Part shown: piece by piece, positions 1 to 13,783 of the stretch
How the letters are laid out: every line of letters starts with the position of its first letter
Numbering within the stretch: the first letter of the stretch is position 1
Source: a virus
Length of the DNA: 64,000 nt
Reading direction: 5' to 3' (one strand)
Virus record (IMG/VR): IMGVR_UViG_3300025872_000051
Coordinates: 12,162 to 76,161 of that record
Notes under the pieces: generated by a model
Told to the model about the DNA's origin: nothing
The model's database searches: none
The model's input: the letters and a program-made list of their open reading frames with translations, nothing else
Made by a program: the position numbers and the translations under genes

Positions 1-66
1 AGGAACTGGACTAATCGGTGATAATGTAGAATACTTCCAAATTGCATTAGAGAATAAAAAAGAACG

Positions 67-912
67 ATGAATCTCAATCAAATTATTACATCTGATAACG
101 TTGAGTATCTAAAAACTCTTCCTGATGAATGTATTGATTTGATTGTAACTTCCCCTCCCTATGATGAACTCAGAGATTACAATGGATATACTCTAGACCT
201 TCACAGTTTGGGTGAGCAACTTCTTCGCGTCTTGAAGGATGGTGGAATCTGTGTGATGGTAATACAAGATTCTACGAAAGATTTTGCTAAATCTCTAACG
301 TCATTTCGCACGATTGTTGATTGGTGCGATAACATTGGATTTCGTTTGTTTGAGTGCAACATATATCACAGACAAGGAACTGAGGGTGCTTGGTGGACTA
401 AAAGGTTTAGAGTGGATCATGAATATATGCCCATATTCTTGAAGGGTAGGAGACCACAATACTTTGACAAAGAGAATATCAAAATACCATCAAAGCACGC
501 CAATAAGGTTATGACTGGTGCTAACATTCGCACTAAAAATGGTAAAACTGGTTCTCGCAAAGTTAAAATCAATCCAACAAAATGCCCAGGAACTGTGATG
601 ACATTTGGTAATACTTGTGGTGGAGAAAGTAAGTTAAAAAGTCAGCATCCCGCAGTATTTCCCAATATGTTAGCGTATGATATGATAGAATGTTTCTGTC
701 CACCAAACGGTGTGGTTCTTGATCCATTCAATGGAAGCGGCACTACAACTCTAGCAGCAAAGTGTCTAGGTAGAAACTATATTGGAATAGACATTTCTGA
801 AGAGTATTGTAACATTGCTGTTCAGAGATTGCACACTGAAACGATAACCAGAAAAAAGGTAGAAACTACAAATCAACTTATAGGATTGGAGCAATTTATT
901 AGTTATGATTGA
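67..912 (+). CDS. DNA methyltransferase, beta class (N4-C/N6-A)
   Basis: Catalytic TSPPY motif near the N-terminus; HPAVFP and SAM-binding VLDPFNGSGTT near the C-terminus. The ATG overlaps the stop of a truncated upstream ORF (ATGA). Confidence 0.93.
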   Translation: MNLNQIITSDNVEYLKTLPDECIDLIVTSPPYDELRDYNGYTLDLHSLGEQLLRVLKDGGICVMVIQDSTKDFAKSLTSFRTIVDWCDNIGFRLFECNIYHRQGTEGAWWTKRFRVDHEYMPIFLKGRRPQYFDKENIKIPSKHANKVMTGANIRTKNGKTGSRKVKINPTKCPGTVMTFGNTCGGESKLKSQHPAVFPNMLAYDMIECFCPPNGVVLDPFNGSGTTTLAAKCLGRNYIGIDISEEYCNIAVQRLHTETITRKKVETTNQLIGLEQFISYD

Positions 913-1081
913 AGGATTCATTATTGGTAAAGGTGACTATGCTGCCGTTCCTTTCGGTGAGCAACTGATGATAATCTATCAGGGTGAGCAACTCAAAGTA
1001 TGCAAGACCGAAGCATCAGCACGAAAGTTTATTGTGGATCATAAAAAGGGTAAATCCCAGGCACAACTTCCTATAGAATAA
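905..1081 (+). CDS. hypothetical protein (58 aa, MIEGFIIGKGDYAAVPFG...)
   Basis: Open frame read manually; its stop TAA is the first 3 nt of repeat copy 1. Confidence 0.7.
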   Translation: MIEGFIIGKGDYAAVPFGEQLMIIYQGEQLKVCKTEASARKFIVDHKKGKSQAQLPIE

Positions 1082-1114
1082 AATAGCTCACCTCCAAAGT
1101 GTCCTAATAGTATG
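1079..1114 (+). repeat. boundary element copy 1
   Basis: TAAAATAGCTCACCTCCAAAGTGTCCTAATAGTATG. Confidence 0.95.
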
Positions 1115-2035
1115 ACGACCAAACAAATGCAGAACAAACATCTAGAGCACCCTGAAGATTGTATCCTGACTGGTGATCTGTCAGTTCTGGATTGGTTCTC
1201 TGAATCTGATAGTTCTATCAGCATCAAGATGGATGGTGCTCCTGCTATTGTGTGGGGAACAAATCCTCAGAATGGTAAGTTTTTTGTTTGTACAAAAGCA
1301 GCATTTAACAAGCAAAAGATTCGTCTTTGCTATAATGAGGATGACATCTTCACACATTTCGGTGGACAACCTCGCGTAACGCAAATCCTCATTTTCTGTC
1401 TGGATTTCCTTCCTCGCACTAATCAAGTGTTGCAAGGTGATTGGATTGGTTTCGGCAGTGGGTTGGATACATTTACTCCGAACACGATTACCTACAAGTT
1501 TCCTGCACCAGTTCGTCAGGATATTATCATTGCACCTCACACAATCTACAGCGGTGCTGATGATATTCGTGAGATGACTGCTGCTCCTTTGATGAGCAAA
1601 CTCATCAGCACTAAGCATTGTCTTTTCGTGCAACCTCAGGTCTCTCTTAATCCTTTCCGTGAGGATTTGGAGGATGTGTGTAACTTTGCAAAGCAAATGT
1701 CTACGCTGTGTGAGTTTGTGAGCGACAAGAAAGCATCACAAATTAAAAAAGAGATCAACGCTTGCATCCGTGAGCAAAAGGTCATTGATGAGGATGAAAT
1801 TGCAGAAAAATGTGATTGTGATGTGAATGTCCTGCGTCTTTGGAAGTTGGTTAAATCTATCAAGGATGATTTGTTCCTGTTCATTCACGAAGAGGATGAC
1901 ATTGAGTGTTACATTCACGATGAGCAATCATTCCACGAAGGTTATGTGATTTCCAACAAGTATGGGACACTTAAAGTAGTGGACCGCGAAGTATTCTCTC
2001 ACGCCAACTTCACCGTCAGCAAGAATTGGGGTTGA
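1112..2035 (+). CDS. conserved phage protein with ATP-dependent ligase/nucleotidyltransferase-like motifs
   Basis: KMDG (KxDG motif I), QGDW, HEGYVI and LKVV occur in ligase-like order. Alternative start at ATG 1127. Confidence 0.6.
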   Translation: MTTKQMQNKHLEHPEDCILTGDLSVLDWFSESDSSISIKMDGAPAIVWGTNPQNGKFFVCTKAAFNKQKIRLCYNEDDIFTHFGGQPRVTQILIFCLDFLPRTNQVLQGDWIGFGSGLDTFTPNTITYKFPAPVRQDIIIAPHTIYSGADDIREMTAAPLMSKLISTKHCLFVQPQVSLNPFREDLEDVCNFAKQMSTLCEFVSDKKASQIKKEINACIREQKVIDEDEIAEKCDCDVNVLRLWKLVKSIKDDLFLFIHEEDDIECYIHDEQSFHEGYVISNKYGTLKVVDREVFSHANFTVSKNWG

Positions 2036-2037
2036 GA

Positions 2038-2073
2038 TAAAATAGCTCACCTCTAAAGTGTCCTAGTAGTATG
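2038..2073 (+). repeat. boundary element copy 2
   Basis: TAAAATAGCTCACCTCTAAAGTGTCCTAGTAGTATG. Confidence 0.95.
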
Positions 2074-2232
2074 AGCACAACCAAAATGACTGAAACTGAT
2101 CTCCTCACTCTCCGTGAGCAACTTCAGGAAGATTTGATGTCTTGGCGTGATGTAAATGATCTGCCCGAGTTTGTTGATGAAGAACTCTGCGACATCGTTG
2201 TTTATGCTTTCTCCAAGTTCCTGAATAAGTGA
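2071..2232 (+). CDS. hypothetical protein (53 aa)
   Basis: ORF starting at the repeat ATG (or at 2086): MSTTKMTETDLLTLREQLQEDL... Confidence 0.65.
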   Translation: MSTTKMTETDLLTLREQLQEDLMSWRDVNDLPEFVDEELCDIVVYAFSKFLNK

Positions 2233-2234
2233 TT

Positions 2235-2588
2235 ATGACTATCACTCTCGCTGAATACGCTGCACAGAAAGATGCAAGCAACACAATTTACCTTAACATC
2301 GTTAAGTATGGTTTGATGCTGTGTGATGCTCTCCAGCAAGATGCACCCGATGGTTACTTCTATGAACTGGATAGTTCTGGTCGCAAGTATCATAAAATCT
2401 GGATGCACATTGGAGACCGTCGTGATAGCATCCACGCCTTTATTGATAAGAAAACTGGTTCAGTATTGAAACCTGCAAGTGTAAAGGCACCTGCGAAGGG
2501 TGAGCGTTACAATCTGCTCTCTATTCCTTCCCGTGAGAAGTGTTTTGAGAACGCAACCTGGCACGGTTCTTATTTGTACGCTCGTTGA
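2235..2588 (+). CDS. conserved phage hypothetical protein
   Basis: GRKYHKI...HAFIDKKTG..KPAS.KAPAKG.RYNL signature typical of myovirus early proteins. Confidence 0.8.
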   Translation: MTITLAEYAAQKDASNTIYLNIVKYGLMLCDALQQDAPDGYFYELDSSGRKYHKIWMHIGDRRDSIHAFIDKKTGSVLKPASVKAPAKGERYNLLSIPSREKCFENATWHGSYLYAR

Positions 2589-2589
2589 T

Positions 2590-2625
2590 TGAAAGGGGGG
2601 ACGCTGAAAGTGTCCTAGTAGTATG
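2590..2625 (+). repeat. boundary element copy 3 (divergent left half)
   Basis: TGAAAGGGGGGACGCTGAAAGTGTCCTAGTAGTATG; right 19 nt identical to the consensus. Confidence 0.85.
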
Positions 2626-2742
2626 AACACTCCAAACTGGAAACACAACTCTGGTAAGCATAAACGAACCAAGGGTATGTGTAAGGGTAAAATCAAATCC
2701 CGCAAGCAATCTCTTCAATCACTCAAACTGAAACTGAAATGA
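2623..2742 (+). CDS. small basic hypothetical protein (39 aa)
   Basis: MNTPNWKHNSGKHKRTKG...; starts at the repeat ATG and ends in an ATGA overlap. Confidence 0.6.
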   Translation: MNTPNWKHNSGKHKRTKGMCKGKIKSRKQSLQSLKLKLK

Positions 2743-2903
2743 CCCTCACGCACATTAACGGCAAAAAACTCAAACAGTTTGCTATTACTGCCCCTGGATT
2801 TGAGTTTCCTGATTATGTTTATGCAGAAACAAGAGAGCAAGCAATTCTAGAGTGGGCAGATACTATTGTTTCTGTTGATGTAACTGAAATTGAAGAAGAT
2901 TGA
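2739..2903 (+). CDS. hypothetical protein (54 aa)
   Basis: Manually read ORF, ATGA-coupled to the previous gene. Confidence 0.6.
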   Translation: MTLTHINGKKLKQFAITAPGFEFPDYVYAETREQAILEWADTIVSVDVTEIEED

Positions 2904-2904
2904 A

Positions 2905-3132
2905 ATGACTATTCCTAACTACAACGCCATTTCTTTTCATTCTGAAGAAGAACATCAGGCAGCACTTTATGATGCTTGTTTGTTGATTGTCAATACCTAC
3001 AACCAAACAGATATGCTGGATGGTTATTGTTTTGACCACGGAAAAAATGAAACTATTACTTCATACGATTTTATGAAGTTTGCGCGTCGTATTATCAACA
3101 ATTATGATTGCAACCCAAATGACTGTACCTAA
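2905..3132 (+). CDS. hypothetical protein
   Basis: ORF track (2890..3132); first ATG after the preceding stop is at 2905. Confidence 0.65.
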   Translation: MTIPNYNAISFHSEEEHQAALYDACLLIVNTYNQTDMLDGYCFDHGKNETITSYDFMKFARRIINNYDCNPNDCT

Positions 3133-3268
3133 TCTCACAAGTCAGCACATAGATTTTAATGCTTGGTTGGAAGAATGTCCTGTTGAATGGTTCAAAAGTG
3201 CAAAACCAAGTGTAAATGGTTCTGCAACTTATGAGTTCTTTTTTGATGCTGTGACTGAGGAAGAATGA
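3119..3268 (+). CDS. hypothetical protein (FNAWLEECPVEW motif)
   Basis: Overlapping, coupled ORF. Confidence 0.6.
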   Translation: MTVPNLTSQHIDFNAWLEECPVEWFKSAKPSVNGSATYEFFFDAVTEEE

Positions 3269-3423
3269 CCTACTCAAATTTCACACATAAAGAACTAAAT
3301 GCTCTTTGTTCGGTATTTTTAGATCAAGTTGATTGGGGTGATAAGGAATTGACTGGTCTTGAAAGTGAAGAGTGTTTAGTTTTGTATCATAAACTTACTA
3401 AAATGCGAGAGGAACTTAAATGA
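3265..3423 (+). CDS. hypothetical protein (52 aa, MTYSNFTHKEL...)
   Basis: ATGA-coupled ORF read manually. Confidence 0.6.
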   Translation: MTYSNFTHKELNALCSVFLDQVDWGDKELTGLESEECLVLYHKLTKMREELK

Positions 3424-3424
3424 C

Positions 3425-3922
3425 CTACTCAAATCTCTCCACCTTTACATAACCCTTATGCGACTTTCTATCACCTTTTGCTACATTGCATAGATGTGAC
3501 TTTGAAAGATTATTCTCACGACAATACTTCGCAAGATTAGTAACTTCAATAACTTCTCCAGTTTCTTTAGTTAAAATCCAACTTTTTTCTGCGATTGTTC
3601 TACCTTCACTCTCAAACTTTTCTCTTTGAGATTTGTTGCCTTTCACTCCATTCTCTTTAACCTTATCTGGATTTTGTTCTCTCCACTTTCTTCCACCTTC
3701 TAGGATAACATTCATAAATGCTCTATTTCTTGCTTTTCTAAACTCTGGATTTTTTACATCACCTAAAATCATTTTGTAAGCACAAAAATCTTTATAATCT
3801 CCCCACAATCTCCACTCACAATAATGAAACATTGCGTGTTGAGTTGGTGTTACTTCAACAAGATTTGTTGGGTCGTCAGTTCCACCTCTGTGTTTGGGAA
3901 TAATGTGGTGTTTGTGTTTCAT
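3425..3922 (-). CDS. free-standing HNH homing endonuclease
   Basis: N-terminal HHIIPKHRGGTDDPTNLV...H...H HNH motif; C-terminal NUMOD1-like NLAKYCRENNL...HKGY; opposite strand to its neighbours; minus-strand late-type TAAATA at about 3945-3950. Confidence 0.85.
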   Translation of the reverse strand: MKHKHHIIPKHRGGTDDPTNLVEVTPTQHAMFHYCEWRLWGDYKDFCAYKMILGDVKNPEFRKARNRAFMNVILEGGRKWREQNPDKVKENGVKGNKSQREKFESEGRTIAEKSWILTKETGEVIEVTNLAKYCRENNLSKSHLCNVAKGDRKSHKGYVKVERFE

Positions 3923-3955
3923 CTTTAACCAAAGTTACCAGTATTATTTAGCGTA

Positions 3956-4219
3956 ATGACTAATGATTTTGCAACTTCCAATCTATCAAAAATCAAAACA
4001 AAGTTTAGGACTTCTGGTGCTATTTCACAACCACGAAGAAAGGCAGGTTCTACACTCAACGACATCGGAATGAGCACCAAAGAAACTATCAAATGTGCTA
4101 CACAAGATGAGTATCTCAATCGTCTGTATTATGCTTTTGACAATAGCACAGATGATAAACTGCGTCGGTTCATTTATGCTGAGATCCGCAAGATCCACAT
4201 TCAGAGAGGCACTTGGTAA
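3956..4219 (+). CDS. conserved phage hypothetical protein
   Basis: ORF track; fits the plus-strand gene series. Confidence 0.75.
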   Translation: MTNDFATSNLSKIKTKFRTSGAISQPRRKAGSTLNDIGMSTKETIKCATQDEYLNRLYYAFDNSTDDKLRRFIYAEIRKIHIQRGTW

Positions 4220-4227
4220 CTGAGAGA

Positions 4228-4263
4228 TAAAATAGCTCACCTCCAAAGTGTCTCAATAATATA
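4228..4263 (+). repeat. boundary element copy 4
   Basis: TAAAATAGCTCACCTCCAAAGTGTCTCAATAATATA. Confidence 0.93.
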
Positions 4264-4279
4264 AAGGCAACTATTCAAC

Positions 4280-4819
4280 GTGTTTGTTTCTATTTTTGAG
4301 GACGGATCTCTCCAAGATTACATCAATCAAAATGCACAAGATCCTTGGATTGGTACACCTTTCCAGGGTTATGTGTTTATGTCTCCCAAGCAAAAGGGGG
4401 AGTTTGGTGAGCGTTTCGTCTCTAAGTTCTTTGAGAATGTATTGTTGTGTGATGTAAAACGTGCCAAAACATCTACAGCAGGGCACGATCGTGTGATTGA
4501 TAACATTCGCACAGAAATCAAGTTCTCTCTTGCTACCCGTGACAAAAAAGGTGGCACAAAGAAAGATCAATTTATCATCAATCACGTTTCTAAAGATAAA
4601 GATTGGGAACGTCTTGTGTTCTTTGGTATCAACCAAGATGAGAAAGATTGTCGCCTGTTTTGGTTCAGTAAAGAGGATTTCCTGAATCATCTTGAGTCGG
4701 AAGATTGTCTGTTTGCACCACAACAAGGTGGAAAATCTATCGGCAATGATGATTACATTTGCACAAAAGTTGATCGTCTGGTAGAATGTTCCTTTGTGAA
4801 GAGCATAACCGAATGGTGA
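4280..4819 (+). CDS. putative PD-(D/E)xK restriction endonuclease
   Basis: KGEFGE...GHD...TEIKFS catalytic-like pattern; overlaps the downstream methyltransferase. Confidence 0.65.
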   Translation: MFVSIFEDGSLQDYINQNAQDPWIGTPFQGYVFMSPKQKGEFGERFVSKFFENVLLCDVKRAKTSTAGHDRVIDNIRTEIKFSLATRDKKGGTKKDQFIINHVSKDKDWERLVFFGINQDEKDCRLFWFSKEDFLNHLESEDCLFAPQQGGKSIGNDDYICTKVDRLVECSFVKSITEW

Positions 4820-5541
4820 ATCTATTTCACGGCGATTGTTTAGACATTCTGCCAACACTTGCAGACAACTCTGTAGATCTGGTGTTGGTAGATTTGCCAT
4901 ACGGTACAACAGCGTGTAAATGGGATTCTATCATTCCTCTGGACAAATTGTGGGAGCAATATAACAGAATCTGTAAGGAAGATGGTGCAATGGTATTCAC
5001 TGCAGCACAACCTTTCACCACTATACTTGCAGCATCAAATCTTGAGAACCTTCGTTATGAATGGATTTGGGAAAAACCGCAAGGAACTAATCCTATGAAC
5101 GCGAAAGTTATGCCTCTCAAGTCACACGAAAACATCCTGGTCTTTTATAGAAAGAAACCCACATACAATCCTCAGATGTGGTACTCTACACCTTACAGTG
5201 GTTTCTCATCAGAAACCAGTAAGATTGGTGAGGTTTATGGTAAAGCAAAGAGCAAGCATAGGGATAATCCTGATGGATCAAGATACCCTAAGACAGTATT
5301 GCGATTCAAGCAAGAAAAGGGTCTGCATCCTACACAAAAACCTGTTGATTTGATGGAGTATCTAATCAAAACGTACACTAACGAAGGTGATACTGTGCTA
5401 GACAATACGATGGGATCAGGTACAACTGGTGTAGCATGTGTGAACACCAACAGAAACTTTGTGGGTATTGAGAGTGATGAGAAATACTACAAGATCGCTG
5501 AGGAAAGGATCAACAACCCACTCTTAAATGCTATGAATTAA
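4813..5541 (+). CDS. DNA methyltransferase, beta class (probably N6-adenine)
   Basis: GDCL, DLPYG, HPTQKP and VLDNTMGSGTTG motifs; stop TAA lies inside repeat copy 5. Confidence 0.93.
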   Translation: MVNLFHGDCLDILPTLADNSVDLVLVDLPYGTTACKWDSIIPLDKLWEQYNRICKEDGAMVFTAAQPFTTILAASNLENLRYEWIWEKPQGTNPMNAKVMPLKSHENILVFYRKKPTYNPQMWYSTPYSGFSSETSKIGEVYGKAKSKHRDNPDGSRYPKTVLRFKQEKGLHPTQKPVDLMEYLIKTYTNEGDTVLDNTMGSGTTGVACVNTNRNFVGIESDEKYYKIAEERINNPLLNAMN

Positions 5542-5574
5542 AATAGCTCACCTCCAAAGTGTCCTAGTAGTATG
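5539..5574 (+). repeat. boundary element copy 5
   Basis: TAAAATAGCTCACCTCCAAAGTGTCCTAGTAGTATG. Confidence 0.95.
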
Positions 5575-5811
5575 AGCAACAACATCGTTTCCGAAATCTA
5601 CTCCTACCACACAAACTGGAAGGAGGGTAAAGTCAACCAGATGTGGATTGAGCAATCTGGTGATGAGAACAAAGGTTATTCTTTCGTCGCTGTAGCACAC
5701 AATCCCCGCAATGGTAAGACGATGGAAATGTCTAACCCTCGCACATCTTACCGTGAAACTCTAGAATGGGTTCGTGGTTGGTGTGGTACTTTTTGTGTTC
5801 TTCCTGTTTGA
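5572..5811 (+). CDS. hypothetical protein
   Basis: ORF track; starts at the repeat ATG. Confidence 0.75.
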   Translation: MSNNIVSEIYSYHTNWKEGKVNQMWIEQSGDENKGYSFVAVAHNPRNGKTMEMSNPRTSYRETLEWVRGWCGTFCVLPV

Positions 5812-5845
5812 TTTCTTACACTCAACTCAACAACTTTAACTCTTT

Positions 5846-6049
5846 GTGACTGATAAAGAACAACAAATCCCTAAAGATGGCGAACGTTGCATTAACGTGC
5901 GTCGTCAAGATAATGGTTTGTGGGAGGTTCACATCCAAGTTTTCAAGTTCAACAAACTTCGAGGTGATTCTTATTGGAACACTTTGGCGTATAGGACATA
6001 TCAAAAAAAATCTGATGCTGAACGTTATGCTGCAAGATTTGTGAACTGA
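5846..6049 (+). CDS. hypothetical protein
   Basis: ORF track; GTG start. Confidence 0.6.
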   Translation: MTDKEQQIPKDGERCINVRRQDNGLWEVHIQVFKFNKLRGDSYWNTLAYRTYQKKSDAERYAARFVN

Positions 6050-6092
6050 TGAACAAAACCTTCGGTTCTTCTGCTATTCAAGTTTCCTGATT

Positions 6093-6221
6093 ATGAAAAC
6101 CAACTCTAACTCTTCTTGGATTGATGAACTGATTAAATGGGAAAATGCTCATCCTGAGTATCAACCATTTGAGGAGGATGAAAACTCTCAACGCCGACAA
6201 AACCAGAAAGAAGATTATTGA
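6093..6221 (+). CDS. hypothetical protein (42 aa)
   Basis: Manually read ORF between two TGATTATG junctions. Confidence 0.55.
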   Translation: MKTNSNSSWIDELIKWENAHPEYQPFEEDENSQRRQNQKEDY

Positions 6222-6223
6222 TT

Positions 6224-6418
6224 ATGACTACTGATTTACTCAAACTCTATAAACTTTGCATCCTTGATTTACTGATTGCGATTGATGAGGATGTAGTAGA
6301 TTGGAGGAACTATCCTAAACTTTGGGAAGCAATCCGATTTGCTGATACTACTCTTGACCTCTGGGCAGGAGATAATCTCAAACAGATGAAAGAACAACTT
6401 TGGAATGAACTGAAATGA
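6224..6418 (+). CDS. hypothetical protein
   Basis: ORF track; start placed at the TGATTATG junction. Confidence 0.65.
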   Translation: MTTDLLKLYKLCILDLLIAIDEDVVDWRNYPKLWEAIRFADTTLDLWAGDNLKQMKEQLWNELK

Positions 6419-6576
6419 AAAACTATCGCGTGATGGTTGAAACTAAAGATGGATGTTGTACTATTTGGTATGAGAAATCCAACGCAAAGACCGCAGACAA
6501 ACTTATCCTAAATCGCGTCTATAATCAACTCTGCGGTCTCAACATTAAAGAAATCTCTGTTATTCCTTCTGTTTGA
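6415..6576 (+). CDS. hypothetical protein (53 aa)
   Basis: ATGA-coupled, manually read ORF. Confidence 0.65.
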   Translation: MKNYRVMVETKDGCCTIWYEKSNAKTADKLILNRVYNQLCGLNIKEISVIPSV

Positions 6577-6578
6577 TT

Positions 6579-6845
6579 ATGTACCGCACACTTTCTGAAC
6601 TTCGCAACAGCATTAACAAACTGATTGAGCAACAAGGTGAAGACGCACCTTGCGCTGCATTTGTATTCACCAAAGAAGATGTTTTTGAGTTTGGTGAGAA
6701 TGATGAGGAAAATCATTTTCCTATTGTTTTCACTCAAGATGTTCTCTGTGATGTAGGAGGATGTTCCTACATTTACGAACAGGTTGGTGAAATGATTGAC
6801 GATTCAATCCGCCTTCGTAAGAAACTCCCACTCTACGCTAACTGA
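6579..6845 (+). CDS. hypothetical protein
   Basis: ORF track. Confidence 0.75.
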   Translation: MYRTLSELRNSINKLIEQQGEDAPCAAFVFTKEDVFEFGENDEENHFPIVFTQDVLCDVGGCSYIYEQVGEMIDDSIRLRKKLPLYAN

Positions 6846-6847
6846 TT

Positions 6848-7090
6848 ATGTCTGACCTGCAAGAGTTCTACGATTATGTTCTCTCTTTCTATGGTGCTGA
6901 TGGATTGTATCCTATGGGTGCAACTCTGAGCGTCATCAAGCAAGCAACATCCACACACATTAAGATACTTAAACTGAAAGGAAATGAGTTCTGTGGTGAT
7001 AGTATTGACCGCGAATGTGTGCGGGATTTGTTAATCTCAAAATATGGTCTGACCTTCCCAACTGCTCCCGTCTCACTTGCGTCTCGCTGA
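6848..7090 (+). CDS. hypothetical protein
   Basis: ORF track. Confidence 0.75.
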   Translation: MSDLQEFYDYVLSFYGADGLYPMGATLSVIKQATSTHIKILKLKGNEFCGDSIDRECVRDLLISKYGLTFPTAPVSLASR

Positions 7091-7206
7091 GAACCCTGTC
7101 CACCACTAGACCAAAAACCTGATTTTTCTGCAATTTCACCTGACAGACCCCATAGGTCATCTGCTGCAGAGAAATTAACGATTTTTTCCAAACTCTAAAC
7201 AATCCA

Positions 7207-7350
7207 ATGAAATACATCGTTCAACTCTATCAAGGTGGCAAAGTGTTCACTGAGGAAGTGTATGCTAGCACACCCAAAGATGCCCGTGAAACTGCACTCA
7301 TTCGCAACCCAACTTGTAAGGTAGTTGGAGTGAACGCAAAGTTCAACTGA
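7207..7350 (+). CDS. conserved small phage protein (MKYIVQLYQGGKVF...RNPT.KVVGVN)
   Basis: Manually read ORF ending 1 nt before repeat copy 6. Confidence 0.7.
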   Translation: MKYIVQLYQGGKVFTEEVYASTPKDARETALIRNPTCKVVGVNAKFN

Positions 7351-7351
7351 T

Positions 7352-7387
7352 TAAAATAGCTCACCTCTAAAGTGTCCTAGTAGTATG
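7352..7387 (+). repeat. boundary element copy 6
   Basis: TAAAATAGCTCACCTCTAAAGTGTCCTAGTAGTATG. Confidence 0.95.
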
Positions 7388-7555
7388 ACTGACACTTTCA
7401 CCGTTCGTTTCTGGTCTGAATCTCTTGATTCTCCAGAATACATTGGACCTTTCTACTCTGAAGAAGATGCCCAAGATTATTGCGATGCCCGCAACGGTTC
7501 GCTATCTCTAAGCGGTATTCCTTCCTGGGTTGCAAACTACTCTATCGTTGACTGA
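7385..7555 (+). CDS. hypothetical protein (56 aa, YIGPFYSEEDA motif)
   Basis: Starts at the repeat ATG; no alternative in-frame ATG. Confidence 0.65.
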   Translation: MTDTFTVRFWSESLDSPEYIGPFYSEEDAQDYCDARNGSLSLSGIPSWVANYSIVD

Positions 7556-7557
7556 TT

Positions 7558-7761
7558 ATGCTCTTCCAAGTTACTGAAATTGAGTTTGATTTTGAGATGG
7601 AGGATGATGAATATCCTTCAGATGATTATCAACAAGCACTCACAGAAGAAACAATCGGTCAAATCTGGGAAGCAGATGATGAGGATGATCTAGTTGAAGA
7701 GATTACCTGTGCGACAGGTTGGTGCATTAAATCCATTGATTATCGTCACATTCTGAAATGA
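7558..7761 (+). CDS. acidic hypothetical protein
   Basis: ORF track. Confidence 0.75.
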   Translation: MLFQVTEIEFDFEMEDDEYPSDDYQQALTEETIGQIWEADDEDDLVEEITCATGWCIKSIDYRHILK

Positions 7762-7898
7762 GAATTGTCCTTCTCTTCGCTACACTTTTCGTTGGTATTC
7801 AGTTCGGAGCAAATGCTATCGCAACCGTGAGTGAGTATCAAGAACAGCAAGCAGATCGCTTCTGTGAAATCAACCCCAACTACTGCAACGCAAAATGA
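7758..7898 (+). CDS. small membrane/secreted protein (46 aa)
   Basis: Hydrophobic N-terminus MRIVLLFATLFVGIQFGANAIA; ATGA-coupled at both ends. Confidence 0.6.
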   Translation: MRIVLLFATLFVGIQFGANAIATVSEYQEQQADRFCEINPNYCNAK

Positions 7899-8113
7899 AC
7901 ATTACTCAAGAACAATACGATCTACTGGTTGCAAAATACGCCAGCGACATTGTAGAAGGAATGGATATGGACAGTTTGATAGAGTTTGCGTGTGATACGA
8001 TTGAAGAAAATCTCCGCAAGATGCACCCCAATTCTGATGAACTTCTCCAAGAGATTTCAGAGGTTTATGGTGAAGATTATGCGGAAGAGTTCGTGCAAAG
8101 TGTAATTGAATGA
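7895..8113 (+). CDS. acidic hypothetical protein
   Basis: ORF track. Confidence 0.75.
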   Translation: MNITQEQYDLLVAKYASDIVEGMDMDSLIEFACDTIEENLRKMHPNSDELLQEISEVYGEDYAEEFVQSVIE

Positions 8114-8255
8114 CACGCAGAAGTTTAACACTCAAACCGCCTTGCAAAGTGAAAACAATTCTCCTGATTTTCACCGTTGCGTTTATACTCTCGCCAGGAG
8201 TTCGTAACGTTACCGCTAACACATTGCACACCGTCGCTGATATTATTCAACCACA

Positions 8256-8396
8256 ATGATTGAAACTGATTTCTTTATTCTCTCACAAGAACAGTATCAG
8301 CAAACTCTCCAAGATGCTGCCATTGAAGGTGTATCTGTTGACTACTATTTGCTGGAGTTTTGTACTGTTGAAGGTGAGTGGGTTACAGTGGAATAA
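8256..8396 (+). CDS. hypothetical protein (46 aa)
   Basis: Manually read ORF; stop TAA is the start of repeat copy 7. Confidence 0.65.
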   Translation: MIETDFFILSQEQYQQTLQDAAIEGVSVDYYLLEFCTVEGEWVTVE

Positions 8397-8429
8397 AATA
8401 GCTCACCTCTAAAGTGTCCCAATAGTATG
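8394..8429 (+). repeat. boundary element copy 7
   Basis: TAAAATAGCTCACCTCTAAAGTGTCCCAATAGTATG. Confidence 0.95.
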
Positions 8430-8675
8430 AACGACCAAACCTCCTACACTTCTCCTCACACTGGTAACATTTATCAGTGTATTGTTGAGAAGAATTGGCG
8501 TCAATCTTGGGACGCAAATGGTAATGCTTTCAAGAAGTATTACAACACTTATAGTTTCTTTCTGAATGGAGAGTTTATCACTAAAACTCTTCACAATGAT
8601 GAAAAGACTCTAAGCACAACGTTTGGAGAGTTGGAGGGAGTTTATACTCCTTGGATGACATCTGCAAGGGATTAA
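8427..8675 (+). CDS. hypothetical protein
   Basis: Start codon comes from copy 7 and stop codon from copy 8. Confidence 0.75.
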   Translation: MNDQTSYTSPHTGNIYQCIVEKNWRQSWDANGNAFKKYYNTYSFFLNGEFITKTLHNDEKTLSTTFGELEGVYTPWMTSARD

Positions 8676-8708
8676 AATTACTCACCTCCAAAGCGTCCTA
8701 GTAGTATG
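8673..8708 (+). repeat. boundary element copy 8
   Basis: TAAAATTACTCACCTCCAAAGCGTCCTAGTAGTATG. Confidence 0.93.
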
Positions 8709-8993
8709 AACACAAACGATCTCCTAGACAGCATCAAACTCTCTGAGCAACTGGCGCTGGAAAACTATCAACAACGCAACGGTGTTGTTGATTATCGCCT
8801 TGACGGAGTTTGCAATCATTACTTCGCAAAGTATGATTGGAATGGTAAGCGTGACGGTGAGATTTGTCTCACTTGTAAAGTTTCCAAAACCGTAAAAGGT
8901 TCGCTCCGTTACACTTTCCAGATTGACGGTAAGCGTATCGCATACAAAGAGATTTGGACTAAGTTTAACTCTCTTGGTGCATTTCGCATCTGA
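8706..8993 (+). CDS. hypothetical protein
   Basis: ORF track; starts at the repeat ATG. Confidence 0.75.
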   Translation: MNTNDLLDSIKLSEQLALENYQQRNGVVDYRLDGVCNHYFAKYDWNGKRDGEICLTCKVSKTVKGSLRYTFQIDGKRIAYKEIWTKFNSLGAFRI

Positions 8994-9030
8994 TTTTTCT
9001 CACAAACTCATTCATTCTTAAGTAACACAA

Positions 9031-9297
9031 ATGACGATGACTTCTCAAACGATTACTCTTGAACAGTTCCACGATTTGCTTTCTGATGCTTATGCTGTGA
9101 GTGTGAACGATACTCTATACTTTGTAGGGTATGATACAGATGACAATCCTTACATTTCCGACAATGATGGGCAGGATTATGTTGACCTTTCTACTGTAGA
9201 TGGTGATATTGAAGTTCACAAAAACTATGTGTTCTTTCATGTGAACGGTGAACCTCTTCAGATGGTTTTTCTCAACATTAAACCGCTTAATTTCTGA
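9031..9297 (+). CDS. hypothetical protein
   Basis: ORF track. Confidence 0.7.
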   Translation: MTMTSQTITLEQFHDLLSDAYAVSVNDTLYFVGYDTDDNPYISDNDGQDYVDLSTVDGDIEVHKNYVFFHVNGEPLQMVFLNIKPLNF

Positions 9298-9303
9298 ACT
9301 GAA

Positions 9304-9483
9304 ATGACTAGCACTTTTTATCTTGTTCGCGCTGAGAATCGCCGTGAACCTGAATCATATGTTTGCGGTCTTTATGTAACAGAAACTGAAGCACAAGAGC
9401 GAGTTGATTCTCTAAAAGAAGAATACGATTTTGCCTGGTTTGATGACATTCAAGTCGGTGATCTAGATCTCTGTAATCGCTGA
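9304..9483 (+). CDS. hypothetical protein (59 aa)
   Basis: Manually read ORF. Confidence 0.6.
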   Translation: MTSTFYLVRAENRREPESYVCGLYVTETEAQERVDSLKEEYDFAWFDDIQVGDLDLCNR

Positions 9484-9497
9484 AATCTCCAAGCGAT

Positions 9498-9533
9498 TAA
9501 AGTTACTCACCTCCAAAGTGTCCCAGTAGTATA
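9498..9533 (+). repeat. boundary element copy 9
   Basis: TAAAGTTACTCACCTCCAAAGTGTCCCAGTAGTATA. Confidence 0.92.
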
Positions 9534-9558
9534 ACCACCACACTTTCCCAACCACAAA

Positions 9559-9870
9559 ATGCGTAAGATTGAAGCACAAATGAACCGCGCAATCTCCCAA
9601 GAGATTGATTGGCAAAAAGACAACACTCAAGTTATCAACATTGAAGGCGTAAGTTTCGTCTATCTGTATAGCAATCTGATTGCTATGGTTGGTGATACTT
9701 GGTTGGAACTGTTTGATGGCGGACATCAAACAAATACCACCAAATCGCGTCTCAATGCTATTCTTGCAGAGCACGGAACTGGTGAGCGTGTTTATCAAAA
9801 AGATTTCACTTGGTTTGTATCAACATCCAACGGTGAAGTTCCTTTCAACAATGGTATCAAACTTTCCTGA
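9559..9870 (+). CDS. conserved cyanophage-type hypothetical protein (MRKIEAQMN...TTKSRLNA)
   Basis: ORF track; recognisable family signature. Confidence 0.8.
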   Translation: MRKIEAQMNRAISQEIDWQKDNTQVINIEGVSFVYLYSNLIAMVGDTWLELFDGGHQTNTTKSRLNAILAEHGTGERVYQKDFTWFVSTSNGEVPFNNGIKLS

Positions 9871-10067
9871 TGACTGAATCTCAAATCCTTCAACTTCGTT
9901 TTCTTTGTAGTGATGTGATTTTCGATTTTGAGTTTACACAATTCCTGATTGATAATCCACAAGACAAAGACAAAATCAAACAAAAAGCGCAACAATACTA
10001 CAACAAACTTCAAGCAATTCTTGGTGATGCCTATGTCCCTGATTCTGAAATGTCTCTCCCGTGCTGA
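9870..10067 (+). CDS. hypothetical protein
   Basis: ORF track; TGATG-coupled. Confidence 0.6.
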   Translation: MTESQILQLRFLCSDVIFDFEFTQFLIDNPQDKDKIKQKAQQYYNKLQAILGDAYVPDSEMSLPC

Positions 10068-10207
10068 GGAGTTAGCAAACGAAATCAATGGTGATTTGTT
10101 CTATGTACCTGAAGAAGATGTCCAACAACTTATCTCCAAACTCACCGAAGATAATGTAGAAGAGATTGCATCAGAACTCGCAGATTTAGCATACTGGTTT
10201 AACTAAA

Positions 10208-10339
10208 ATGTTCGTTATTCGTTACTTCCGTCCTTATACTCAAGAATGGAATACTCAGTCATTCAGTACACTTGAAGAAGCACAATCTATGATTGACTTC
10301 TATCGTTCTTGCGGTTCCCCTGCTAATCTTATCAAATGA
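10208..10339 (+). CDS. small conserved phage protein (43 aa, ...FYRSCGSPA)
   Basis: Manually read ORF. Confidence 0.65.
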   Translation: MFVIRYFRPYTQEWNTQSFSTLEEAQSMIDFYRSCGSPANLIK

Positions 10340-10611
10340 AAGTCGCTCCAATTTCTTTCGCCAAAGCGTCCAATCGTTCCAACTATTATTGTACTTTAAT
10401 CAACAATCTGTATAAGAAAGGTTATACGACTCAACAGATTGCAGATGAGTTAGGTATGGGAAAGACATCAGTTCGTTATTACTATTATGGTCTACATAAC
10501 TGTTCTGAAGCACAGTATCATTGGAAAAATGCTTTCAATGCAAATAAAGAACTCGGATACATTCAGCACAGTTTAACACAAATTCGCGTCGGTACTTCTG
10601 TTCCTATTTGA
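10336..10611 (+). CDS. helix-turn-helix DNA-binding protein
   Basis: KKGYTTQQIADELGMGKTSVRYY HTH pattern. Confidence 0.7.
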   Translation: MKVAPISFAKASNRSNYYCTLINNLYKKGYTTQQIADELGMGKTSVRYYYYGLHNCSEAQYHWKNAFNANKELGYIQHSLTQIRVGTSVPI

Positions 10612-10615
10612 TGTT

Positions 10616-10774
10616 ATGACAATCACAAGTTTCTATAACGGAGAATCGTATTCTAAGTTTGATTCGTATTATGAACCAGAGCACGATGATGTAATGGATG
10701 CAGATGATTATGAACGTAGAGAGTATTATCGTAATGGATGGAATGAAGAGCAATACGATAGACAAAGGTTCTGA
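10616..10774 (+). CDS. acidic hypothetical protein (52 aa)
   Basis: Manually read ORF. Confidence 0.5.
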   Translation: MTITSFYNGESYSKFDSYYEPEHDDVMDADDYERREYYRNGWNEEQYDRQRF

Positions 10775-10787
10775 GTTATGATATAAT
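10759..10787 (+). promoter_or_regulatory. sigma70-type promoter
   Basis: TAGACA-17 bp-TATAAT with an extended -10 TG. Confidence 0.8.
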
Positions 10788-10792
10788 GAAGA

Positions 10793-10907
10793 GGAAGGGA
10801 GTTTGCCTCTATTCAGTAAACAAAGTGACTTCCGTAGAGTATAGATAATTTCCAATAAAAGGTGGTTGGGTGTATAAGAGAGGGACTGGTAATCCCTCTC
10901 TTTTTTT
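10793..10907 (+). ncRNA. putative structured small RNA (~115 nt)
   Basis: Lies between a near-consensus promoter and an intrinsic terminator, with no ORF; nested stems and a possible pseudoknot. Confidence 0.55.
10876..10907 (+). terminator. intrinsic terminator
   Basis: AAGAGAGGGA-CTGGTAA-TCCCTCTCTT followed by a T run; converges with the HNH gene stop. Confidence 0.85.
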
Positions 10908-11409
10908 ATGTCAACAAACGACGTAATCCGTATTGCATAATGTAACTGTCTAATGCACTTTCAATGATAGTATTGAAGAATGTATTGTTATCAGGAACTG
11001 GTAATCCTTTTCTTATAGAAGCAGAGTAAACGTTCTTTATTTTTTCTGCTACAAAATCGTCAACAATATAACCATCAAACTGCTTTTGTTTCTTATCCTC
11101 TTTCCATTCAATGTTCTCTAATCTGTTATCACTTTTATCACCATTCTTATGTTCAACATCGCGTGAAATGTTGTCAGTAGGAATGAAAGCAAGTGCCATC
11201 AATCTATGAACAGAAAAGTTCTTTAATCGTCCTGTATTATCCGTTAATCTTACAAATCTATCTGCTGATGTTTTGCTCTTCCAACCAGGAGAAAGTTTCT
11301 TTGATTTGTTATTCTTAAAGGACCAAACATTACCCTCTGTGTCTATACCATAATCAGGGTAACATTTCAGTGCTTCAACATTAGAGAAGTGCTTGATTCT
11401 TGTCTCCAT
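10906..11409 (-). CDS. NUMOD4/HNH (I-HmuI-like) protein, possibly catalytically degenerate
   Basis: Y.I...G.VWS N-terminus; VHRLMALAF...VEHKNGDKSDNRLENIEW; the usual downstream EN..H is absent. Confidence 0.75.
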   Translation of the reverse strand: METRIKHFSNVEALKCYPDYGIDTEGNVWSFKNNKSKKLSPGWKSKTSADRFVRLTDNTGRLKNFSVHRLMALAFIPTDNISRDVEHKNGDKSDNRLENIEWKEDKKQKQFDGYIVDDFVAEKIKNVYSASIRKGLPVPDNNTFFNTIIESALDSYIMQYGLRRLLT

Positions 11410-11578
11410 TTGTGTGTTTTTTCCTGTCTGATTTATGTAGGGAAAAAGAGATTTCCACTTGTGGAAAACGTGAAATGAGTTATAATGCGTGAAATAAAGG
11501 TGTTGTGAAAAGTGTATAGAATGTGAGGGTATTCTCTCTGTATTCTTATAAATGTGCTGAGACCTTGTTATCTAAGCG

Positions 11579-11607
11579 AGCATACACAAAGGAACGCGAT
11601 TTGTCAA
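11579..11607 (-). promoter_or_regulatory. sigma70-type promoter toward the HNH gene
   Basis: Minus strand TTGACA-17 bp-TATGCT. Confidence 0.55.
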
Positions 11608-11680
11608 CCCCCAAAGTCACAAAATCCTCACAAGACCCCCGCAAAATCCCCCGGAGCGCCCCTAAATACTCCTCAGGTAC

Positions 11681-11709
11681 TTGACACTTACCCCAAGACA
11701 TTATAGAAT
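11681..11709 (+). promoter_or_regulatory. sigma70-type promoter
   Basis: TTGACA-17 bp-TAGAAT, followed by an AGGAG RBS and ATG 11737. Confidence 0.85.
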
Positions 11710-11736
11710 GTTTCCATAGCACACAGGAGCGTACTT

Positions 11737-11910
11737 ATGTCAGTTGTGTATCACCAGGCACAGAAGCAGCGTTATAGGGTAACTCTAGAACTCAATGTCC
11801 TATCCGACTTCGATCCACACCAAATTGACTGGGAGAAACTATTCAAATTGGAACCTGCAGAGAGGTGTGAAGCATACGTGGAGGATCTAGATTGCCCCTC
11901 TAAGTGGTAA
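11737..11910 (+). CDS. conserved small phage protein (57 aa, ...DFDPHQIDWEKLF...)
   Basis: Manually read ORF with an RBS and promoter. Confidence 0.75.
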   Translation: MSVVYHQAQKQRYRVTLELNVLSDFDPHQIDWEKLFKLEPAERCEAYVEDLDCPSKW

Positions 11911-11922
11911 AATAGGCACTTT

Positions 11923-11976
11923 TAGTTTTGATAGCATAACCCCCCCTAAATACCCCTAGTTATGCTATCAAAACTA
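11923..11976. repeat. perfect 18-bp inverted repeat with CTAAATA in the loop
   Basis: TAGTTTTGATAGCATAAC (11923-11940) / GTTATGCTATCAAAACTA (11959-11976). Confidence 0.95.
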
Positions 11977-12155
11977 TGAGACCATTAAAGTATAAGAATT
12001 TGGGCAATGGAGTGATGATTCGCGTCCCTGAAATCGTCACCACAATTCTACCACAACTGCAAGACGTTATGCAACAGTTAGAGGATAACGGTGAGGATAG
12101 TCGTGAGGTGATAATGCAGATTCTCAGTGATGTTGAGGATCGCATCAATTCATAG
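11976..12155 (+). CDS. small protein, possible ribbon-helix-helix regulator (59 aa)
   Basis: MRPLKYKNLGNGVMIRVPEIV... followed by amphipathic helices. Confidence 0.55.
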   Translation: MRPLKYKNLGNGVMIRVPEIVTTILPQLQDVMQQLEDNGEDSREVIMQILSDVEDRINS

Positions 12156-12158
12156 TAT

Positions 12159-12194
12159 TATAATAGCTCACCTCTAAAGTGTCTCAGTAGTATA
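12159..12194 (+). repeat. boundary element copy 10
   Basis: TATAATAGCTCACCTCTAAAGTGTCTCAGTAGTATA. Confidence 0.93.
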
Positions 12195-12250
12195 AGGGCG
12201 CCACACTCTACACGGCGTTCTTATCACAAACACTTTCACTTTTCGTTGTT

Positions 12251-12595
12251 ATGAATTCCGCCCAAATCCTGACGTTCACTGAAGCATTTCCTCCCGCTCA
12301 TAAGTTGACTGAAACTCTGATGAACATTGACTATAAAAAGCACCTGAACACCTATATGGATGGTGTTATGAATGTCTGTGCATTTATCGCTGTGATCGCT
12401 ACTCTGATCGCCTCTAAGTGGCAGGAGAATGATGTTACTGAGCGTCTGCAAATCGCTGCTCTGAACGTTATCACCTGGACCCGCAACGTTGCAGTCCCCG
12501 CTGTGAAGAACGCAGCAACTGTAACTTATAACGCAGGTCAGAAAGTGCGTGAGGTTTATGATGTGATCTCTTCGCCTCTGTTCATTACTCTTTGA
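12251..12595 (+). CDS. hypothetical protein with a hydrophobic segment
   Basis: ORF track; VCAFIAVIATLIA segment. Confidence 0.75.
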   Translation: MNSAQILTFTEAFPPAHKLTETLMNIDYKKHLNTYMDGVMNVCAFIAVIATLIASKWQENDVTERLQIAALNVITWTRNVAVPAVKNAATVTYNAGQKVREVYDVISSPLFITL

Positions 12596-12606
12596 GTTGT
12601 AAGCAT

Positions 12607-12642
12607 TATAATATCTCACCTCTAAAGTGTCTCAGTAGTATA
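12607..12642 (+). repeat. boundary element copy 11
   Basis: TATAATATCTCACCTCTAAAGTGTCTCAGTAGTATA. Confidence 0.93.
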
Positions 12643-12688
12643 AGGGGCACACCCCAAACATCACAAACCAACCACAAATCTCCGACAA

Positions 12689-12862
12689 ATGACTAACACT
12701 TTCCGCGTTGTAATCCCTACCGCTGATGGTATACAAGTCGCTGGAGAGTTTCCTACTTGGTTGAATGCATCTCTGTTCCAGCAAGTTATTCTCACTGACC
12801 GCAATCTTAAGTGTTCGGTTGAATCGTTCTGTAACGGGATGTGGTTAAGCGAATGTGATTGA
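12689..12862 (+). CDS. hypothetical protein (57 aa)
   Basis: Manually read ORF. Confidence 0.55.
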   Translation: MTNTFRVVIPTADGIQVAGEFPTWLNASLFQQVILTDRNLKCSVESFCNGMWLSECD

Positions 12863-12908
12863 TTCTCTCTATTCTCATTAACACTTTTCACCCTACACTT
12901 TGCACCAA

Positions 12909-13157
12909 ATGACTATCGCTTTCCAACGCAATGCTCTTGACGTTTCCTATAACGGTTGGGAGAATTATGAGACCTGGAATGTTGCACTCTGGATTAACAA
13001 TGATGAGGGTTTGTATAACCTTGCCCGTGAGTGTGGTTCGTATCAGGATTTCGTTGAATATATCAGCGAGTTCATGACACAAACTCCTGATGGTGTTCGC
13101 TATGATGATCCTGCTGTAAATGCGATCCAAATCAATAGCGATGTGTTTGACTTCTAA
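12909..13157 (+). CDS. conserved phage protein (YNGWxNYETWNVxLW family)
   Basis: Recognisable N-terminal signature. Confidence 0.8.
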   Translation: MTIAFQRNALDVSYNGWENYETWNVALWINNDEGLYNLARECGSYQDFVEYISEFMTQTPDGVRYDDPAVNAIQINSDVFDF

Positions 13158-13270
13158 GTAACACAAAAGGGAATGAGATGCGCCCTAAAGACACTCACCA
13201 AACACGCCACAACGGGGGAGGTAGTGGCACCCCACCAAACACACAGTTTCTTACACTTTTCTTCTTCATT

Positions 13271-13411
13271 ATGTCCAAGCAAGTGATGATTTCCATGCTC
13301 AAGCAAGGTAACACTGGCGCTGAGATTCTGTCCATTCTGGATGCACTCACCGCTGATAATGTTTCGGAGGTTTCTGATAACGAACCCACTGCAGATGTGA
13401 TTGAGTTCTGA
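13271..13411 (+). CDS. small hypothetical protein (MSKQVMISMLKQGNTG...)
   Basis: C-terminal part of ORF 13178..13411; likely start at 13271. Confidence 0.6.
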   Translation: MSKQVMISMLKQGNTGAEILSILDALTADNVSEVSDNEPTADVIEF

Positions 13412-13419
13412 TAACACAG

Positions 13420-13461
13420 AGGGCACAGGGTTTGACACTCTGTGCCCTTGAATGTTATGAT
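13420..13461 (+). promoter_or_regulatory. sigma70 promoter with the -35 box inside a stem-loop (PeSL-like)
   Basis: AGGGCACAG/CTGTGCCCT stem enclosing TTGACA (13432-13437); 18-bp spacer; TGnTATGAT. Confidence 0.7.
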
Positions 13462-13617
13462 AGATTGGTGACACTGGCGGGCAGTTAAATGCGGTTGGTT
13501 TGTTATAGCGCGGCGCGGCGTTGTCCCGTATATAAAAACTTCGGGTCCCAGTGACCTCCAGAGGTGACAAAACGCGAGAGAAATATCAATCTCATAAAAA
13601 AATCCCGGAAGTATAAG

Positions 13618-13761
13618 ATGAGAAAAAAATCCCGCCCCTATTGGAATTTCTGGAAGGTTGTCTTTGCGGGATGGATGATCCGATATCCTGGAAAGATGTT
13701 TAGAATTATCGGAGTTCCTCTTGGAATACTGATAGTGGTAATATATAATGCAGTGAAATAA
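13618..13761 (+). CDS. small membrane protein
   Basis: PYWNFWKVVFAGWMIRYP plus a hydrophobic C-terminal helix. Confidence 0.6.
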   Translation: MRKKSRPYWNFWKVVFAGWMIRYPGKMFRIIGVPLGILIVVIYNAVK

Positions 13762-13783
13762 AAAAATTCCGGAAAAAATTTTT

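Follow-up and report, generated by a model that had tools for sequence, protein, structure and literature searches.

A two-part repeat with built-in stops and a start codon, probably of promoter type, heads small accessory genes in a freshwater T4-like cyanophage

The small-gene block of a freshwater T4-like cyanophage (Kyanoviridae) carries a short repeated element at the joints between its genes, which we analysed in a stretch of 64,000 nucleotides (nt; hereafter the window) that corresponds to bases 12162-76161 of the linear 76,161-bp IMG/VR contig IMGVR_UViG_3300025872_000051. The element is composed of a 3' half that is shared across the virus family and a 5' half that is specific to each genome and evolves in concert within it, and it brings stops in the three reading frames together with a start codon that the following gene uses. 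On the basis of this anatomy and of the genomic setting, we propose that the element is probably a promoter-type control element in two parts, of a type other than consensus sigma-70.

The element recurs on one strand of the small-gene block

A search of the window with the 33-mer consensus (at most three mismatches, 100 shuffles as control) returned seven matches on the plus strand versus none expected. With the 16-nt 3' part, ten matches spanning 1096-12639 were obtained versus 0.65 expected, along with one extra match at 26679 that has three mismatches, is at chance level and is the sole partial match in the 50-kb structural core, where no copy had been noticed originally either. A looser scan gave ten full copies in the window (Table 1) and three further full copies upstream of it (contig 8460, 9742 and 10304), and none on the minus strand of the contig. 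The contig total is thus 13 full copies and one variant, all on the plus strand, co-oriented with the genes and located within a 16-kb block of small open reading frames (ORFs). The copies are near-identical and 33-40 bases long, and those in the window are spaced by 279-2661 bp, as originally predicted. The original prediction had also counted eleven copies on the plus strand; ten of these are full copies at the predicted coordinates, but the one at 2590 turned out to be a half copy with another 5' half.

The element is not peculiar to this virus. Its 17-nt core occurs in at least 114 IMG/VR stretches, often with many copies per contig, and of the copies in 116 sources, 560 are on the major strand, whereas the minor strand has none. 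The cultured Synechococcus phage SynMITS9220M01 has 13 copies on one strand, 12 of which are in a small-gene block upstream of the baseplate genes, at a position syntenic to that in the window's contig. Similarly, phage S-SM2 has at least 10 copies, which belong to class F and have the 5' half GGGGGGTCGCCT.

A family-wide 3' half is joined to a genome-specific 5' half

Comparison of copies revealed that the 3' half AAAGYGTCCYWRTAGT (followed by R-T-R-A) is far commoner than the core, with 791 unique instances in cyanomyoviruses, S-SM2 included, and is joined to many different 5' halves, among them CTCACCTCY, GGGGCCTTG, GGGCCCCTG, GTAACCTCT, GAAGCCTCT and GGGACG... In the genome studied here, the 5' half is TAAAATAG-CTCACCTCY. 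Three observations establish that the element has two parts. First, there is essentially one class per genome: across the 108 loci that have five copies or more, the majority class averages a share of 0.89, versus 0.42 for the top class when all copies are pooled. Second, at gene junctions that are orthologous the element has the class of its own genome. Third, inside class A the genome specificity extends to the 8 nt that precede the core, which are TAAAATAG here and TAAAGTTA in most relatives. The element therefore consists of a family-wide 3' half and a genome-specific 5' half that evolves in concert within the genome, and it stays conserved while the flanking genes are only ~65-90% identical.

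No significant match to the full element was found in phage Syn9. This phage has five copies of a repeat of its own, GTGTATTCTATAAGAGTCAAAGG (L119:6339-6362 and four at Syn9 47253-53059), situated ~17 nt before the start codons of small genes. The small-gene region at 43-54 kb of Syn9 contains orthologues of window genes (helicase, DUF7717, Kyano_Gp96) and a repeated GTGT-N3-CTATAAG motif that is placed similarly to the element relative to start codons. Judging from motif and placement, the window's element is probably a lineage variant of a class to which this Syn9 motif also belongs.

The element is fitted between the reading frames of adjacent genes

Numbering positions from the first base of the CTCACC core, we found an ATG at positions 25-27 in 123 of the 263 unique copies. 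In 93% of these 123, the frame set by the ATG runs open for 30 codons or more, versus 2-4% for the other two frames. In the window, seven copies have, 33 nt past the element start, an ATG with which the next ORF begins (Table 1), in agreement with the original prediction. The conserved N-terminus of DUF6267 proteins, MKNTHLEHPED, begins exactly at the element ATG in many relatives, and the GenBank starts of the DUF6267 orthologues SynMITS9220M01_059 and SSM2_070 coincide with it as well. By all these reading-frame and annotation measures, the element ATG is a genuine start codon. Furthermore, 125 of 240 ATG-type genes have a second in-frame Met 4-9 codons later that aligns with the start of homologues lacking the element, a pattern that looks like the footprint of an element placed in frame before an existing start. 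Copies without ATG mostly have GTA or ATA at this place; the first ATG of a long ORF then follows 15-24 nt further, behind an A/C-rich leader of that length without a Shine-Dalgarno sequence. Position 25 is a purine in 445 of 445 non-A copies, with a T before it in 443 of the 445.

Towards the gene upstream, the element closes the reading frames. Stops in all three frames are present by position 28 in 306 of 466 copies, versus 3.3% of random windows; they are TAA at -8, TAA at 8 or T(G/A)A at 26, and TAG at 18 or 21. Approximately 44% of upstream genes terminate on a stop inside the element. In the window, the TAA at the element start is the stop of the upstream gene at four copies (Table 1), and the ORF list places the other copies 1-14 nt after the upstream stop, again as predicted. 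With such stops and a real start, the idea that the element is a fixed-length joint supplying stop, expression signal and start is supported.

The joint is optional. The element is present at ~40% of junctions and missing from ~60%, and the same pair of genes may be separated by an element in some genomes and overlap through GTGA or ATGA in others. In one relative (L057), a TGA and an ATG that overlap in relatives have the element exactly between them.

A proposed promoter function and candidate positions of the transcription start

The promoter proposal draws on five features: the distribution of the element, its strict co-orientation, its being optional at a given junction, the presence of terminators upstream of some DUF6267-heading copies, and the existence of separate canonical promoters at the block edge. 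Because the element is optional at a given junction, a promoter fits better than a general translation signal. In several relatives (though not in this genome), intrinsic terminators lie 10-15 nt upstream of the element that heads the DUF6267 gene, and since the element ATG is the conserved DUF6267 start, transcription should begin inside the element. For genes with an element ATG, the transcription start would thus have to be at or before position 25, i.e. the ATG. Within class A, a box at -8 to -3 occurs in the variants TAAAGT, TAAAAT, TATAAT, TAATAT and AAAAGT, keeps an A in second place in 213 of 224 copies and a T in last place in all 224, and so varies in the manner of a -10 hexamer. As a separate observation, the closest relative, L112 (reverse-complemented), has at ~8060-8140 a perfect intrinsic terminator, GGGGACTT-TACA-AGTCCCC with a T-run, directly upstream of a class F element.

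On this proposal, the element would head transcription units of one to eight small accessory ('early-type') genes. The near-identical, co-oriented copies of 33-45 bp would at the same time offer homology for recombination, and recombination among them could account both for the gain, loss and movement of modules and for the uniformity of the element within a genome.

Several points weigh against this proposal. First, sequence logos revealed no conserved -35 in the element, and a single sigma-70 geometry fails to accommodate all copies; in a consensus scan of the window, TTGACA-17-TAnAAT sites were found elsewhere, and among the elements there was a single weak match (9/12, at 2032-2059). Second, the TAAART box is present in 83% of class A copies but in 18% of the other classes. 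Third, the best family-wide TAnnnT (TATAGT or TAGTRT, positions 19-26) implies a start downstream of the translated ATG, and it is unusable for genes that begin at the element ATG because their transcripts would start past it. The alternative invariant box, AAGTGT at positions 10-15, is a weak -10; it would start transcripts at about positions 22-25 and thereby give leaderless or near-leaderless mRNAs, and such a start agrees with the invariant T-purine at 24/25 and the A/C-rich downstream sequence. Fourth, so strongly conserved a sequence between the candidate boxes is an unusual trait in a plain host promoter, and it could be a signal at the RNA level instead. Fifth, the uniformity within genomes could reflect selection by a trans-acting factor rather than recombination. 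Finally, junctions that lack the element gain and lose genes almost as often: in 41% of the 168 minimal indel events, neither flank has an element.

A further-reaching scheme can be put forward tentatively, with far more doubt than the promoter proposal itself. In this scheme, the genome-specific box of 9-12 nt beside the universal core would mark the accessory-gene promoters of a lineage and be read by a lineage-specific factor, possibly delivered with the virion; the promoters would fire at or within a few bases of their own ATG, producing leaderless or near-leaderless mRNA, and recombination among copies would keep the box uniform. The box might then act as a transcriptional 'own code': once cassettes have been exchanged between co-infecting phages, it would determine which of the imported ones are expressed.

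Possible alternatives: action on RNA or spread as a selfish repeat

The element could instead act on RNA between the cistrons of long early transcripts and not be a promoter; it might mark where these transcripts are processed, couple translation through termination and reinitiation, or serve as the operator to which a translational repressor such as RegA binds. We regard this as rather unlikely, although it agrees with several features: the stops in three frames are combined with a start at fixed distance, conservation peaks in the 16 nt that abut the AUG, which are U/A-rich (UAGUAGUAUGA) and common to all classes, and no consistent -35/-10 geometry was found. Moreover, a hairpin with T-run lies upstream of 15 of 490 copies (3%) versus 38 of the 1410 gene starts used as control, and no copy in this genome has one; with a terminator before so few copies, read-through transcripts must be common. 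RegA of T4 and RB69 binds start regions rich in UAA-like triplets, and SynMITS9220M01 encodes a RegA homologue (E 5e-44).

On the other hand, genes at the ~60% of junctions that are element-free are still translated, via overlapping stop-start codons, and therefore the element is not a general initiation signal. Nor did we find a stable fold (class A copies gave weak and inconsistent z-scores of -0.3 to -2.3), a covarying fold or a credible Rfam match to the element. The terminators directly upstream of some DUF6267-heading copies also speak against this reading, and the genome-specific 5' half is easier to explain as an address on DNA. Both modes may coexist, in that RNA processing, reinitiation or a RegA operator may be added to promoter function, and a combined promoter and operator is possible. 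Two further candidates at this level were rejected: mimicry of the anti-Shine-Dalgarno by CACCUCC, because other classes have unrelated 5' halves, and a hairpin of the 5' half with GTCCC in non-A classes, because the paired fractions equal those of shuffled controls.

Alternatively, the element could be a miniature repeat of the selfish kind, spreading between genes and tolerated there without a regulatory role. It has many copies per genome, clean insertions between stop and start, and concerted evolution within genomes. Yet we consider this very unlikely, given an orientation strictly with the genes (560 versus 0), an exact reading-frame logic and confinement to the small-gene block; no terminal inverted repeats or target duplications were found at the element, and purifying selection acts on its 3' half in phages and classes that are very divergent.

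Modules differ at elements, and elsewhere

To follow gene modules between genomes, gene-family strings were compared across the 116 sources. The order of backbone modules is largely conserved among relatives. In this genome nothing stands between families 3 and 1, a slot that at least six different element-headed modules occupy in relatives. The module of families 237-238-33 (Table 1) is located between families 19 and 36 here and between families 3 and 1 in L112. At its right end, homology with L112 stops just after the element ATG; at its left end, the 5' halves differ (class A here, terminator and class F in L112) and full identity resumes ~20 nt past the element. As a side observation, the N6/N4 DNA methyltransferase at 4786-5541 is the final gene of this element-bounded module that occupies another slot in L112.

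In the 168 minimal indel events, the element is on both flanks in 26%, versus 16% expected at a junction frequency of 0.40. The downstream neighbour is conserved at 0.28 across element junctions versus 0.38 across others, a modest difference. Hence, the original prediction of module shuffling finds partial support, in that relatives may have, lack or relocate whole element-headed modules and lose homology at the element, but with 41% of indels element-free it does not hold that genes are gained and lost exclusively there. The elements appear to be frequent seams, consistent with homologous recombination between repeats of 33-45 bp, but not the sole seams. Within the array, the copy at 8673-8705 has a mixed upstream box, TAAAATTA, and lies between copies with TAAAATAG on its left and a copy with TAAAGTTA on its right; this may be the pattern expected of a crossover within the element, or it may be due to chance.

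As a population check, DNA-run contigs from four freshwater or wetland runs were compared to contig 7001-26500, bearing in mind that such contigs end at repeats. Structural variants were seen near elements, but neither a circle nor a hybrid-element deletion was established from these contigs, whose joints are ambiguous. Many joints fell at a copy with the common TAAAGTTA box and had short sides, and these were taken as relatives or repeat artefacts. A cleaner joint, present in two freshwater runs, leads from contig 21695 to 25066 (L127 14695 to 18066) with 23 other nt between, so that the 3' end of the element at contig 21659 is joined to sequence 3.37 kb downstream. To judge from this junction, it is a co-occurring variant or relative that has a different module after the element at contig 21659.

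Least probable of all, to the point of being nearly discounted, is that a dedicated cassette system, of integron type or with another site-specific mechanism, recombines at the element and has an enzyme that excises and inserts element-flanked cassettes: whole element-headed modules differing among relatives, the excess of indels with elements on both flanks, one module in two slots, the seemingly exact insertion between stop and start in L057 and an HNH endonuclease gene within the array would all suit it, but neither the contig nor the complete SynMITS9220M01 genome yielded a tyrosine integrase and the element showed no inverted repeat or fold resembling attC, while the element-free indels, homology break points that do not fall at one fixed base, and the conserved order of backbone modules stand against it.

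Relation to described systems

The closest described system is that of the promoter-early stem-loop (PeSL) cassettes of T4-type coliphages and vibriophages, whose genomic role is alike. PeSLs (RB49/phi1, T4/PST, KVP40/nt-1) combine a sigma-70 type promoter (TTGACA-like, 17 nt, TATAAT-like) with a stem-loop terminator; they have been proposed to provide homology for recombination, and the formation of mini-circles has been demonstrated (Arbiol et al. 2010, PMC2839356; Comeau et al. 2014, PMC4122927). Like PeSLs, the element is short, well conserved, repeated and co-oriented, and it resides in hyperplastic regions of small ORFs. PeSLs often lie where blocks of ORFs have been inserted, deleted or replaced between close relatives; clear cases of this exist for the element, next to the indels that are free of it. 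Unlike PeSLs, it has no consensus -35 and no stem, as had been noted originally and as the consensus scan, the folds and the counts of upstream terminators (before 3% of copies, none in this genome) now confirm; it is fused to coding frames through its stops and start codon; and it has a genome-specific half.

Doron et al. 2016 reportedly described a novel regulatory element of early genes in the T4-like cyanophages Syn9 and P-TIM40, which is said to be abundant, conserved in cyanophage genomes and metagenomes, and unlike host promoters. The element studied here is likewise found in genomes and metagenomes of T4-like cyanophages, where it precedes small genes that are clustered; the two share the virus family and, reportedly, the association with small, clustered genes of unknown function. 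The setting is also alike, in that window genes have orthologues in the Syn9 repeat region and the window has separate host-like promoters. The full window element has no significant match in Syn9, and the likeness is one of genes and setting. In the papers searched other than Doron et al. 2016, the element motif was not described. Probably, then, the class of element has been described in part as the cyanophage early element and is covered conceptually by PeSLs; what may be new is the concerted, genome-specific 5' half, the combination of stops in three frames with a start codon that is translated, and the limits that follow for the position of the transcription start.

As in integron attC/attI arrays, co-oriented gene cassettes in tandem are separated by a repeated site. 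By contrast with integrons, the element is at the 5' end of expression units, carries the start codon, and heads many units that are multi-gene. A search for tyrosine integrases (PF00589) was negative in the contig and in complete SynMITS9220M01 (control search: 14 of 14 genomes positive), and fold tests revealed no attC-like hairpin or inverted repeat in the element, such that the integron-style gene library once envisaged has to be given up.

With promoters of the SP6/T7 type the element shares a long conserved block, made of a phage-specific part and a common ...CTATAG core directly before the start region, as well as the use of one variant per genome. The ...CTATAG core resembles the SP6 promoter consensus. 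A promoter of this type, suggested by the ...GTCCCTATAG core, was dropped when no T7-like RNA polymerase gene (PF00940) was found in the contig or in complete SynMITS9220M01, a weak negative in that the control search detected 0 of 14 genomes. T4-like cyanophages use the host RNA polymerase.

T4-like cyanophages are among the most abundant aquatic viruses, and most of their accessory genes are in small-gene blocks. If the division into a shared and a genome-specific half is true, it would offer a means to predict, for hundreds of unknown genes in metagenomes, to which transcription units they belong and when they are expressed, a route to the protein that reads the genome-specific half, and a concrete mechanism for the exchange of gene modules and for their expression, or silence, in a new genome. 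SynMITS9220M01 (class A) and S-SM2 (class F) are cultured phages with two different classes, which makes the question directly testable.

Gene content of the contig

The completeness of the IMG/VR contig is estimated at 35%, and the structural genes of the window are 70-79% identical in nucleotides to those of T4-like cyanomyoviruses. The block with elements encodes two N6/N4 DNA methyltransferases, DUF6267, DUF7717, Kyano_Gp96, a helicase and, on the other strand, an HNH endonuclease; the rest of it comprises many small ORFs without family match. The two methyltransferase genes (window 67-912 and 4786-5541) are a paralogous pair, and the HNH-like ORF is the sole clear minus-strand gene within the array. 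The G+C content of the block (contig 8001-26000) is 40.6% versus 30-36% elsewhere in the contig, and within the window there is a step between 1-14000 and 14001-64000, from ~40% in the small-gene block to 27-35% in the adjoining structural genes.

Table 1. Copies of the element and other features of the window
Feature	Position in window	Strand	Remarks
Element copy, class A	1079-1111	+	TAA is the stop of ORF 905-1081; ATG 1112 starts the DUF6267 gene
DUF6267 gene	1112-2035	+	Element-headed in 56/66 related loci; conserved N-terminus fixes the element ATG as genuine start
Element copy, exact consensus match	2038-2070	+	ATG 2071 starts an ORF of 53 amino acids (aa)
Variant (half) copy	2590-2622	+	Family-wide 3' half at 2604-2622 (19 nt) joined to a different 5' half, GGGGGGACGCTG, class F
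Gene after the variant copy	ATG 2623	+	39-aa ORF
HNH/NUMOD-type homing-endonuclease-like ORF	3425-3922	-	Inside the array; family 141r, present in relatives too
Element copy, then ATA	4228-4260	+	Next gene start ~19 nt further
Module of gene families 237-238-33	4261-5541	+	Element-bounded here; last gene is the N6/N4 DNA methyltransferase 4786-5541; different slot in L112
Element copy	5539-5571	+	TAA is the stop of methyltransferase ORF 4786-5541; ATG 5572 starts a 79-aa ORF; right boundary of mobile module 237-238-33
Element copy, exact consensus match	7352-7384	+	ATG 7385 starts a 56-aa ORF
Element copy	8394-8426	+	TAA is the stop of ORF 8256-8396; ATG 8427 starts an 82-aa ORF
Element copy, mixed upstream box TAAAATTA	8673-8705	+	TAA is the stop of ORF 8427-8675; ATG 8706 starts a 95-aa ORF
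Element copy, upstream box TAAAGTTA (common in relatives), then ATA	9498-9530	+	28-nt A/C-rich leader before the Kyano_Gp96 gene 9559-9870
Canonical host-like promoter TTGACA-17-TAGAAT	11681-11709	+	From the consensus scan; promoter class separate from the element
Element copy, TATAAT upstream box, then ATA	12159-12191	+	Next ORF from 12251
Element copy, TATAAT upstream box, then ATA	12607-12639	+	Next ORF from 12689

Canonical host-like promoters other than the one in Table 1 are present at 10759, 13432 and 13981. Upstream of the window, contig 1-8459 holds ~29 small co-oriented ORFs and zero copies of the element, and therefore another signal must drive these genes. Finally, at window 13412-13461 the -35 of a canonical promoter (TTGACA-18-TATGAT) is embedded in an inverted repeat, GGGCACAG...CTGTGCCC, and several Syn9 promoters likewise have a palindrome between or over their hexamers.

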